The notes under the pieces were generated by a model, which searched no databases, was not told the origin of the DNA, and saw only the letters and a program-made list of their open reading frames with translations. The position numbers and the translations under genes are program-made. Positions 5,699-35,619 of a stretch of DNA of 64,000 bases are shown here, piece after piece. The DNA lies in sequence record OP870147.1; one strand, 5' to 3'. Source of the DNA: Escherichia phage vB_Eco_F31. Position 1 is the stretch's first letter. Each line of letters starts with the position of its first letter.

Positions 5699-6697
5699 TT
5701 ATGATACTAATTCAATCCATGCAGGACGCAGAACATCTTGCACCATTCGGACTAATTCTTTCTTAACAAGATTCGGATTATCAGATGATGTTAATACAAT
5801 ACCTTCACGAGAAGTTTCTTCCAGAATATCTTGAACAGTCAATCCCATCACTTTGCCAAAATCTTTTGGCGTTACAGTCCCAATCTTAGAAATCACATTA
5901 TTAACACGATTTAATGTAACATAACAAGCTAGAACATCAAGTAAGTTTTTGTCAATTTCGGTTAATGGAACCTGAGTTTTAATAGGCTTATCAGACTTTT
6001 TCTTTTCACTGAATTTAGAGTTCTTGCACTTAATAGCTACACGAGTACCGTTTGGCAGCCATTTAGGGAAACAGGGCTTCAGAACATAACCTTCCGCAGT
6101 ATTATTACCAATAACATTAGCATCAAATACGCAATTATTTGCTTCGACAAGGTCTTCTGACGCAGTAGCATTATAAGCGGCTAAGACAGAATCAAGGTCG
6201 TTTGGAATCATGATAAGAGCATCAAATGTGCCACGACCAAGCATTGGTGCCATTTTAAAACCGAATTCATTACAGAAATCTTGCATTTCATAATCGGTCA
6301 AATACGTATTATCACCACTTTCTGTATTGATAAGGATATCGAACACATAAAAATCTTTTTCACCGTAGTCAACACCTTTCTGGATTCCACCACCGGCGAA
6401 TTCACCGAATACTTGATATGATACGGCTCGAGCTGTGTACATGAATTCCTGAACGGCTTTAATAGCTTTATCATACTTCTTGAGTACGATTTCATAACCA
6501 TAAAAATCTTCTGCTGGAAGAATAGGGCCTGTGCGCTTGGCGCATGTGACGTTGTCACGTTCAATTATTAACGAGAAGTTAGTCCCATGGATTTTCTCAC
6601 GTGCTACCCAAACACCAGTAGTCAAACCATTAGTGTAGAGTTTTTCAATAAACTTAGAGTTGTAGTGGTTTTCAAGACTGCTGTATTTCTTAAACAT
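5699..6697 (-). CDS. rnlB: RNA ligase 2 (Rnl2)
   Basis: 332-aa ORF; [21 protein letters not shown]...[17 protein letters not shown] (nucleotidyltransferase KxHG motif), C-terminus ...[11 protein letters not shown] matches T4 Rnl2 as recalled. Confidence 0.92.
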
Positions 6698-27320: not shown

Positions 27321-27356
27321 ATCTTTTTAAACTTTTTCTGCCCTAAACGCACAAAA

Positions 27357-27374
27357 GGGAGACCGAAGTCTCCC
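27357..27374 (-). terminator. Terminator after the 59-aa basic protein gene
   Basis: Minus strand GGGAGACuucgGUCUCCCuuuugug. Confidence 0.65.
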
Positions 27375-27379
27375 TAAAA

Positions 27380-27559
27380 TTATGCAACAACCTTTCCAAA
27401 ACGAGAAGCATCATCTCGAAGAACTGCACGTGCTCTGCGCATGATCTTCTCAACTGTTTGATTAATACGAGAGTTCGACCCACGCTTGTATCCAGCGCGT
27501 TTAGAGGTACCATCAACTTTCTTTTCAACTGCTTTCTTTGCTTTAGCTTGTTTTGCCAT
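27380..27559 (-). CDS. Small lysine-rich basic protein (59 aa), not in the ORF track
   Basis: MAKQAKAKKAVEKKVDGTSKRAGYKRGSNSRINQTVEKIMRRARAVLRDDASRFGKVVA*; ends just before UUCG terminator 27357-27374; preferred over overlapping 27343..27528 frame. Confidence 0.5.
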   Translation of the reverse strand: MAKQAKAKKAVEKKVDGTSKRAGYKRGSNSRINQTVEKIMRRARAVLRDDASRFGKVVA

Positions 27560-27854
27560 TATAAATTCTCTTTAAATGAAAATGCAGGACTTATTGACAT
27601 TGCCTGCGCAAGCCCTCAAGGGGAACATAGGTTTTGGATATTTAACGACAGGATAACCATAAACCCGTCATTATACCAACCACGACTTAGACAGATAACC
27701 TTTTTCTGACGCGTGATAGTACAAAATACATTCAAGAGGTACACCGTAAAACTGCCGGGGCCTTAAAACTATAATGATTCGCAAATCATTAATCAGACAG
27801 TTCGACGGCTCCTCGATTTTCTAGCCGCACTTAAGGTAGCGAATCACCTAAAAC

Positions 27855-28103
27855 TTATTTAAGGGTAATAACAAAATGACGTACTGCTTTACGAGCTGCA
27901 GAAGCCAAAGGCTTAGCATATTTCAGTTCATCTTTTGCTTCCAGTTCAGAGGCCAAAGCTGCCTGTACCGGGTTCAGATGTTTGAAATAATGCAGGATTT
28001 CCAGTGCTTCGGCTTCAACATCAATCGACGCGCCGTAGTTTTCGTGACCGTTATTCCATGCGTTTCGTTGCAGTTCAAGAGCGTGTTGTAATTGTTTAAT
28101 CAT
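27855..28103 (-). CDS. rIII: rIII lysis inhibition accessory protein
   Basis: 82-aa ORF MIKQLQHALELQRNAWNNGHENYGASIDVEAEALEIL... matching T4 RIII in size and sequence as recalled. Confidence 0.88.
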   Translation of the reverse strand: MIKQLQHALELQRNAWNNGHENYGASIDVEAEALEILHYFKHLNPVQAALASELEAKDELKYAKPLASAARKAVRHFVITLK

Positions 28104-28227: not shown

Positions 28228-28560
28228 TCACTTATAAAGACACGGAATAGCTTTATAGTGGCATGTTACGAATTTCTGTTTAATTTCTTTAGGTTGTTTA
28301 AGTCCCAAAGCCACAAATGGATGTGGAACATTTCGAATTTGTCCAACTGGTAGTGGAGTCAAATCACCGACTTCAACAAAACCTTCAGGAACATCAGGAC
28401 CTACAGAATGAACTACACATAGTTCAGGAACTTCACCTTGAACACGTTTACCAATCACAAGTCCTGATTCGGTAACTTCTTCATCACCTGCTTGAGCGGG
28501 TTCAGAAACCAGAATGACATATTCACCAACAGCACGAATTGGGAGTTGTACTTCGGACAT
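28228..28560 (-). CDS. 31: Co-chaperonin gp31 (GroES analogue for capsid folding)
   Basis: 110-aa [37 protein letters not shown]...[10 protein letters not shown] near-identical to T4 gp31; MotA-box middle promoter upstream. Confidence 0.95.
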
Positions 28561-35573: not shown

Positions 35574-35619
35574 TCAGTTAGTTTTTTTAAATTGTACCAC
35601 AATCCTTGTGGTATGTAAA

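Follow-up and report, generated by a model that had tools for sequence, protein, structure and literature searches.

A modular non-coding RNA island with a putative ToxI mimic in the rIII-30.9 spacer of the T4-like phage vB_Eco_F31

Organization of the rIII-30.9 spacer

The sequence analyzed here (the window) is a 64,000-nt stretch of Escherichia phage vB_Eco_F31 (OP870147.1), and our subject is the 295-bp interval, positions 27560 to 27854, that separates rIII from the homologue of T4 gene 30.9. The source phage is a T4-like Mosigvirus, its locus is 99.9% identical to that of phage vB_EcoM_G53, and the genes at this locus are all on the minus strand. By aligning the spacers of many phages, we found that the interval is built of five modules, A to E, on the minus (sense) strand. 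It seems to us somewhat more probable than otherwise that they form an accessory, early-transcribed non-coding RNA island carrying an RNA mimic of the ToxIN antitoxin. The features of the locus are the following.

28228 to 28560, minus: gene 31, upstream of rIII.
27855 to 28103, minus: rIII, lysis-inhibition accessory protein of 82 amino acids (aa) (PHROG match, E = 7.6e-43); its stop codon abuts the island.
27814 to 27849, minus: module A, a single putative pseudo-ToxI unit (AGGTGATTCGCTACCTTAAGTGCGGCTAGAAAATCG), assigned by homology to the 36-nt toxI repeat.
27732 to 27816, minus: module B, an 85-nt structured RNA (covariation, RNAalifold and minimum free energy [MFE] folding).
27670 to 27731, minus: module C, an optional early-promoter cassette of about 62 bp (A-tract, -35-like element and -10 element).
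27630 to 27669, minus: module D, an H-type pseudoknot (covariation in 22 sequences across the Tevenvirinae).
27613 to 27623, minus: module E1, a small hairpin (CCCCTTGAGGG) followed by a conserved CTTGCG (by eye).
27584 to 27607, minus: module E2, a hairpin (GCAGG-CAATGTCAATAAGT-CCTGC) with a conserved loop, followed by a U-rich tract (by eye).
27557 to 27573, minus: translation initiation region of the 30.9 homologue, with a weak Shine-Dalgarno (SD) sequence, AAAGAGAA (27566 to 27573), and the ATG (27557 to 27559).
27380 to 27559, minus: T4 gene 30.9 homologue, a basic protein of 59 aa (phrog_1427, E = 2.4e-31).

The spacer alignment covered T4, T6, RB69, Dhaka-, Gapriver- and Gelderlandviruses, T4-like phages of the Yersinia, Pectobacterium and Klebsiella type, and metagenomic relatives. 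Across these relatives the modules are independently present, absent or reordered, and in the Klebsiella-type phages their order is permuted. The homologous spacer of T4, 244 bp long (AF158101, 130541 to 130784) and free of any annotation, holds a diverged A together with B, D and E and lacks C. RB69 has B, C, D and E without A, ESh15 keeps only C, D and E with neither A nor B, and teqdroes and STML-198 combine A, a truncated B, D and E without C. Identity to T4 is 97.6% in B, 100% in D and 98.5% in E, against 85.5% over rIII as a whole and 66% at its third codon positions. Judged by these identities, B, D and E are either more strongly constrained than the flanking genes or recently exchanged. 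It is this conservation, together with the covariation described below, and not the single sequence, which indicates that something beyond chance is present. The first-pass annotation had proposed a comparison with related phages and an Rfam scan as checks; the comparison did reveal conservation, both of sequence (B, D and E against T4) and of structure (covariation in B and D), and Rfam gave no match inside the interval, in this window or in eight related loci, at E values up to 10 or 1. ARAGORN called no tRNA or tmRNA in the region. Searches of the accessible literature for the spacer, for T4 small RNAs and for the sequence strings of the modules returned no earlier description.

The first-pass annotation had also described the interval as non-coding, arguing that it holds no open reading frame (ORF) longer than 18 codons. 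The argument fails, because the ORF list contains frames of 26 aa (ATG, plus strand), 37 aa (TTG) and 42 aa (GTG), as well as an 83-aa TTG ORF antisense to 30.9, and one ORF is annotated in G53. The judgment itself holds, because single-base and whole-module indels in the homologues disrupt every frame and leave no ORF conserved. The 37-codon TTG ORF (27671 to 27784, minus), which covers half of module B and all of C, corresponds to the hypothetical protein G53_00216; this ORF is unconserved in T4, and the annotation is probably a mis-annotation. A conserved small or upstream ORF starting from the AUGAUG before module D was rejected as well, since its frames vary among phages.

Module A, a ToxI-like unit

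Module A lies right after the rIII stop codon and comprises one complete 36-nt unit. A BLAST search of the interval, covering 5,426 E. coli genomes and 72,556 plasmids, matched only the module A part. The matches are confined to the first ~44 nt (27811 to 27854), show 87 to 90% identity at up to seven places per record, and lie mostly on small mobilizable plasmids. In both records inspected, the match falls inside a tandem array directly upstream of a gene annotated as "type III toxin-antitoxin system ToxN/AbiQ family toxin"; on P. atrosepticum pPA21A a 37-nt unit is repeated 13 times, and on E. coli pTA141-2 the 36-nt AGGTGATTTGCTACCTTTAAGTGCAGCTAGAAATTT is present in 5.6 copies. Module A and the pTA141-2 unit are identical at 31 of 36 positions. 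Two of the differences make up a compensatory U-A to C-G change in the stem, and another is a TTT/TT length variant, which belongs to the natural variation of toxI (PMC3475682). Among 11 phage versions the 3-bp stem is always paired and two of its three pairs covary, in a comparison that covers this stem of the pseudoknot core. The GCUAGAA segment is also kept, and C27 and U28, residues critical in ToxI (PMC3475682), are placed there by residue-number mapping alone.

The reverse search, toxI against phages, recovered G53-type Mosigviruses, Gapriverviruses, Klebsiella T4-like phages, Kuraviruses, T5-like phages and others, along with phiTE, the sole record that annotates a "pseudo-ToxI, weak antitoxin to ToxN". 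The similarity of module A thus extends to bona fide toxI repeats upstream of toxN, and we regard its homology to toxI as very probable. The window contains one unit only, for which reason module A is called a pseudo-ToxI and not a toxI gene, and the genes adjacent to it are rIII and 30.9 instead of toxN/AbiQ. With the ToxI of ToxIN systems (P. atrosepticum pECA1039 and E. coli plasmids) it shares the 36-nt unit and a stem whose pairing is kept by compensation; those systems differ in having a tandem array, an adjacent toxN and a promoter/terminator context, all of which module A lacks. Judged by sequence, module A is a mimic and not a toxin-antitoxin locus.

The pseudo-ToxI of phiTE (PMC3475682) is likewise a phage-encoded, non-coding copy of the ToxI repeat in an ORF-free region. 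It is transcribed in infection, and suppression of ToxN has been demonstrated at sufficient copy number (PMC3475682). It differs from module A in that its 1.5 DNA repeats are unable to give one full RNA unit, a consequence of their phasing (PMC3475682), whereas module A is a complete unit in full phase. The phiTE element also belongs to a tRNA cluster of the Vequintavirinae, whereas module A belongs to the rIII 3' untranslated region (UTR) of a member of the Straboviridae, and the sequence of module A is nearer to the E. coli-type toxI. In the phiTE record (L199, ~1090 to 1190), the validated pseudo-ToxI stands in a stable-RNA cluster, beside a tRNA 3' fragment.

Rfam 15 returned no ToxI family match even on the authentic 5.6-copy toxI array (L198, 1396 to 1597), so that mimics of type III antitoxins are invisible to Rfam-based annotation. 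No mention of, or experiment on, a ToxI-like unit in T4-like phages was found in the searchable literature. Outside the T4-like phages, the terL-portal spacer of Kuraviruses (XT32, L200, ~590 to 650) holds one complete, unannotated ToxI-like unit preceded by the ToxN site GAAAUUC, and single unannotated ToxI-like units are present in T5-like, 7-11-like, Vibrio and Salinivibrio phages.

Module B, a four-helix RNA

Module B adopts an irregular stem with a side hairpin, formed by the helices P1 (GAGG/CCTC), P1b (CCGT/ACGG), P2 (AACTGTC/GGCAGTT) and P3 (hairpin at 27772 to 27791), while its internal loops and 20-nt junction are invariant. In an alignment of 23 distinct sequences, 98.3% of the cells are paired and 13 of 25 pairs show compensatory changes, compared with at most 2 in slid controls. 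RNAalifold returned the same fold, the MFE structure of the single sequence contains the same helices, and the covariance model found one copy in the window (111 bits). On the sense strand the wobble pairs are G-U in 27 cells and A-C in 5; because G-U so far outnumbers A-C, the constraint on B acts on the minus-strand RNA. For B and D alike, we are highly confident that selection operates at the RNA level.

We found B in four unrelated lineages, all of them coliphages, namely the Tevenvirinae, phi92-type phages, Vequintavirinae and Kuraviruses, and it is absent from the T4-like phages of Klebsiella, Serratia and Yersinia. In the Vequintavirinae W70 and LTH01, it belongs to a cluster of about 600 nt that is free of ORFs and includes a homologue of T4 rnaD; a tRNA-like gene begins 14 nt downstream of B. 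The cluster that houses the validated phiTE pseudo-ToxI, made of tRNA and stable-RNA genes, is homologous to this one. In Kuraviruses, B lies upstream of terL (L155, 1198 to 1286), and a pseudo-ToxI occupies the next intergenic region. A scan of bacterial genomes with the B pattern gave only one chance match in coding sequence and one Kuravirus contaminant in a metagenome-assembled genome. A hammerhead ribozyme, considered for B on account of a CUGAUUA motif, was rejected because the core does not fit.

T4 rnaC and rnaD, the species 1 and 2 RNAs of the tRNA cluster, resemble the island modules in being phage non-coding RNAs with no function assigned, and an rnaD homologue adjoins module B in the Vequintavirinae stable-RNA cluster. 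They differ in that neither has sequence similarity to any module, and a homology between the island and either RNA, which we considered, was not found. The rnaD homologue of the Vequintavirinae tRNA clusters (W70, L154, ~1500 to 1610; phiTE, L199) shares GTAAGTCGTCGGACTGATG...CACAGCAGAAACGGCGCACC.

Module D, an H-type pseudoknot

In module D, helix P1 pairs GACGGG (27664 to 27669) with CCTGTC (27647 to 27652), and P2 pairs the loop GGTT (27655 to 27658) with AACC (27630 to 27633) across an A-rich linker, GTTAAATATCCAA (27634 to 27646). The linker is conserved across versions as an A-rich stretch of 13 to 15 nt (CGUUAAAUAUCCAAAA). Covariation over 22 distinct sequences scored 0.404 against at most 0.14 for slid alignments, with 43 doubly changed cells against at most 13. 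Compensatory changes affect 3 of 6 P1 pairs and 5 of 7 P2 pairs, as expected of an H-type pseudoknot, and P2 occurs elsewhere as TTGGTT/AACCAA, AGTAGTT/AACTACT, TGTGAG/CTCACA and CAAGGTT/AATCTTG. D is nearly always upstream of 30.9 in T4-like phages and is also found beside a tRNA in LTH01.

In size and H-type architecture with a long A-rich loop, D resembles the type III antitoxin pseudoknots, above all those of the CptI type (PMC5086642). CptI-type antitoxins are, like D, H-type pseudoknots of about 45 nt in which the first loop is very short and another is long and rich in adenine (PMC5086642). The likeness is architectural only, as neither a sequence homologue nor a tandem array nor a cognate toxin was found for D. 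Several other candidates were dropped: a preQ1-I riboswitch or pistol ribozyme, which share GUUAAAUA and an A-rich tail with D, had no covariance-model support, and a riboswitch-type alternative pairing of P1 with E2 would involve only 3 to 4 bp and is unconserved. A loose scan of viral contigs for the D motif returned about 120 loci, all chance or coding and none with the P1 stem. A D-like pseudoknot, CCGGGGTTTAAGGTTATCCTGG...AAAACCT, was seen in the unrelated 94-kb viral contig IMGVR_UViG_3300028388_005362 (L024, ~6100 to 6140), where it is intergenic and lies about 45 nt upstream of a small gene.

Module C, module E and the start of gene 30.9

Module C comprises an A-tract (27700 to 27708), a -35-like GTTATC (27694 to 27699), an 18-nt spacer and TGGTATAAT (27670 to 27678), in which a TATAAT -10 element is preceded by TG; transcription is predicted to start at about 27663 to 27665. 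The first-pass annotation had recognized this extended -10 element on the minus strand, and it does exist there, at 27670 to 27678 and not at 27666 to 27676, reading tTGGTATAATg with T and not G as its 5' neighbor. Taken by itself, the -10 element is not beyond chance, with eight TGNTATAAT found in the window against 4.8 ± 2.0 expected. At the -35 position, neither TTGACA nor GTTTAC occurs at 17 ± 1 nt; GTTATC agrees with TTGACA at 3 of 6 positions with 18-nt spacing, and a sigma-70 scan of the window called no promoter at C because of this poor -35. The layout is like that of a canonical-looking early promoter elsewhere in the window (AGAAAAAGTAGTTTAC-N18-TACAAT, ending at 35599), and C is kept in Mosigvirus, Dhakavirus, T6 and RB69 and absent from T4, teqdroes and STML-198. 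The predicted start falls within the 5' strand of D helix P1, so that transcripts from C could not form the D pseudoknot; an RNA with A, B and a complete D would have to come from the rIII promoters by read-through.

Module C shares with the promoter early stem-loop (PeSL) cassettes of T4-type phages (PMC2839356, PMC4122927) a short intergenic location, an A-rich upstream tract, a TTTACW-like -35, a TAYWAT -10 and presence or absence between close relatives; the locus is also shuffled modularly, and the permutation in phi92 described below is mini-circle-like. The T-even PeSL consensus is TTTACW...TAYWAT (PMC4122927). C differs by its poorer -35 (GTTATC), its loose fit to the consensus and the lack of a G/C stem-loop terminator, and modules A, B, D and E, unlike PeSLs, are not promoter or terminator elements. 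The resemblance concerns the promoter part; the terminator scan called no site, and E2 with its U-rich tract is at most a weak candidate for an intrinsic terminator, a role that we considered for it and dropped.

The two palindromes reported in the first-pass annotation, CCCCTTGAGGG at 27613 to 27623 and GCTTGCGCAGGC at 27602 to 27613, are located where it had placed them. By eye, the E1 hairpin is kept with altered stems in other phages, such as CCTCTTAGAGG and CCCTTCGAGGG, and in Salmonella-phage versions (STML-198 and L192) the E2 stem is swapped, with compensation, to GAACTGG/CCAGTTC around the same loop, which counts as one independent event. A CRISPR I-E repeat was considered for E1 (GTTCCCC plus hairpin) and discarded, as the stem is too short and unconserved in the Klebsiella-phage versions.

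Downstream of E2, the 30.9 SD could pair with an upstream UUUUC. The gp30.9 homologue matched no family in a Pfam search, and gene 30.8, on the same strand, is next after it. Directly after the 30.9 stop, a strong hairpin, GGGAGACTTCGGTCTCCC, followed by TTTTGTG (27346 to 27378, minus), is annotated as a terminator in G53; it escaped our terminator scan and gave rise to spurious partial matches in Rfam (PhrS, BSR0709).

Related elements in other phages

In phi92 (L156, 1170 to 1500), a whole T4-type island lies within a tRNA array in circularly permuted form. Next to the island comes the 30.9 ATG, in fusion with the final ~40 rIII codons (annotated as gp113, "putative rIII"), and after this rIII fragment the first 13 nt of the island are repeated (TTTATTGGAGATT). 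By its sequence, the arrangement is as would be expected from a mini-circle or tandem-duplication intermediate. In the Dhakavirus IME08 (L005, 850 to 924), a different insert of ~70 nt takes the place of module A, with a hairpin of its own (GCAGGTACC...GATACCTGC) and a -10-like element (CCACTATAAT).

Two further elements were noticed in relatives. Module F, absent from the window, is a non-coding element of ~135 nt (CGGCAAGTGCATGC...GCTAACGGTGTGCAACAGATAAGAG) in the rIII-30.9 spacer of VR26 (L004, ~690 to 850) and of L174 to L193. At 80 to 99% identity, it is present in more than 400 records of phages of Klebsiella, Enterobacter, Citrobacter, Serratia and Erwinia, and of some E. coli phages. 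RNAalifold gives it 37 pairs, 16 of them with compensatory changes, and its two hairpin loops look mutually complementary (GATGG/CCATC covarying with CAATGA/TCATTG); neither Rfam nor the plasmids yielded a counterpart of it. In hairpin X, covarying stems (CCATG/CATGG, CTCTG/CAGAG and CTTTG/CAAAG) are capped by an invariant loop, GUGUACGC; this hairpin stands just after the rIII stop in L174, L175, L176 and L186, and also in PM2 (L157, 960 to 1000) and L185. Its GUGUAC motif recurs within the invariant internal loop of module B. A BLAST search of the plasmids with B, D, E, F and X variants gave no match, F by itself giving only noise.

Interpretation and alternative explanations

The toxI homology of A, the folds of B and D, the pattern of module presence and absence, and the extreme conservation together carry the explanation that we hold with moderate confidence, an early-transcribed RNA island with an anti-ToxIN mimic. 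In T4, the rIII and 30.9 RNAs are early (PMC9697503, supplement), and in vB_Eco_F31 the island would be transcribed on the minus strand within an early rIII-to-30.9 message, plus an internal early promoter, its modules folding as well as exchanging separately. As pseudoknots, ToxI units associate head-to-tail with ToxN and obstruct its active site (PMC5086642), their tails filling the RNA grooves and the active site of this endoribonuclease. E. coli toxIN aborts T2, T4 and T6, and the protein counter-defense of T4-like phages is TifA (PMC9391042, PMC10853763); abundant pseudo-ToxI suppresses abortive infection (PMC3475682). A unit made by the phage would therefore be expected to substitute for host ToxI as this decays after infection, holding ToxN in its inactive state, and module A could also seed repeat expansion, as in phiTE. 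Inhibition of ToxN by module A during infection is plausible, though we would put it slightly below an even chance. B and D are under strong structural selection, and they may act as decoys or as cis-regulators; a decoy role, for them as for E and F, is suggested by association only.

Several observations weigh against this explanation. The whole leader is no more stable than its shuffles (z = -0.07), and B, D, E and F have no bacterial counterpart in the 72,556 plasmids or 5,426 E. coli genomes. ToxN cleaves at AA^AU, in E. coli in the form GAAAU (PMC10853763); module A has GAAAAU in its 3' flank and, on its 5' side, no canonical site at the unit boundary, with a UAAAU 8 nt upstream. Because these flanking motifs are imperfect, the exact processing of A is uncertain. 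There is also just one unit here, and the wild-type 1.5 DNA repeats of phiTE were insufficient and needed expansion (PMC3475682). The T4 copy of A is much diverged (24/36) and T4 is fully toxIN-sensitive, while RB69, which tolerates toxIN better, has no A at all; we accordingly rejected module A as the cause of RB69 tolerance.

An alternative is that the extended -10 drives 30.9 and that D and E form a cis-acting leader for its translation or mRNA stability, for example an operator for gp30.9, which is small and basic. The gene 32 mRNA leader pseudoknot of T4 and T2 is a translational operator of this kind, and D is like it in being an H-type pseudoknot in the 5' leader of an early or middle T-even gene, conserved among T-even phages; it differs by having no sequence similarity, by its long A-rich linker, by occurring elsewhere without its gene and by having no known binding protein. 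C has the architecture of a T4 early promoter and is kept by many relatives. Every T4-like locus of the gp30.9 query that retains the upstream region has D and/or E ahead of 30.9. The weak SD may pair with the upstream pyrimidine run, and in distant relatives a UCUCC element faces a GGAAGA SD. Yet the promoter is missing from T4, teqdroes and STML-198, its RNA would start inside D P1 and be unable to form the pseudoknot, and A and B, half of the interval, lie upstream of it and are left unexplained. Moreover, D occurs without 30.9 in LTH01 (beside a tRNA) and in the unrelated 94-kb contig, the whole leader of phi92 drives only an rIII fragment, and modules are found without 30.9 in other phage families, in tRNA clusters or beside terL. 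We consider this alternative, the main rival, unlikely; a cis-leader made of D and E would not conflict with A and B having a different nature. Under the island explanation too, D and E in the 30.9 5' leader may tune translation or stability, and C would be a plug-in promoter for 30.9 that some relatives lack. Of the first-pass suggestions, a promoter with a structured leader was right in the promoter-like -10 and in the real RNA structure, but the promoter is optional, its start cuts D, and A and B are upstream. The more general suggestion of a small regulatory RNA or structured leader was a fair guess, as the interval is non-coding and lies on the sense strand of an early unit with real RNA structure; the ToxI-like unit was missed.

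The modules, B and D above all, might instead be stable small RNAs, excised by host RNases (RNase P/E) like T4 rnaC and rnaD, whose target in trans is not ToxN but another host factor; they might, for instance, sponge an RNA-binding protein or mimic another RNA antitoxin such as a CptI/TenpI-type pseudoknot. This fits the position of B 14 nt upstream of the tRNA-like gene in the W70/LTH01 cluster, which also has the rnaD homologue, the placement of the complete island within the phi92 tRNA array and the restriction of B, in all four lineages, to phages with the same host species. It also fits the size and architecture that D has in common with type III antitoxins (H-type, long A-rich loop, A-rich flanks; PMC5086642). 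Against it, the E. coli genomes and plasmids yielded neither a homologue nor a tandem-repeat counterpart for B or D, Rfam has no related family, and we rate it as doubtful. Least credible to us, and very improbable, is a role at the DNA level with incidental RNA structure, as PeSL-like linker or recombination cassettes or as a replication or protein-binding site. The modules do shuffle in order and presence, the circularly permuted phi92 copy is flanked by 13-nt direct repeats as if derived from a mini-circle, and T4-type phages are on record as having both PeSLs and mini-circles (PMC2839356, PMC4122927). Nevertheless, the compensatory pairing favors G-U (27 cells) far over A-C (5) on the sense strand only, which also disfavors the origin-like or protein-binding DNA role raised in the first-pass annotation; covariation in a pseudoknot has no rationale in DNA, and the conserved unpaired nucleotides would go unexplained. 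To our knowledge, T4 has no origin at this position.

Significance

The island belongs to known kinds, namely phage RNA mimics of type III antitoxins and structured phage leader RNAs, while neither Rfam nor the searchable literature appears to describe its occurrence in T-even-type phages or the motifs of B and D. B and D add at least two folds outside Rfam that are well supported by covariation, and relatives add a third, the 135-nt F, all at a position that is unannotated in T4. A bolder possibility, which we think improbable, is that the whole spacer is an anti-defense array of several RNA decoys, B, D and E, and F in relatives, each mimicking the RNA component or favored RNA ligand of a different host defense system or RNase; other type III antitoxin pseudoknots may be among the RNAs imitated, and unrelated phages may swap modules according to the defenses of the shared host. 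If true, it would be an RNA counterpart of protein anti-defense islands in the best-studied phage. ToxIN against T-even phages is a current model of the arms race, in which the known T4 counter-measure is the protein TifA; an RNA antitoxin mimic is carried by many T4-like phages, Kuraviruses, T5-like phages and others and is unannotated in all except phiTE. Should module A work, the mimicking of type III antitoxins by phage RNAs would be a strategy in wide use and not a laboratory curiosity.

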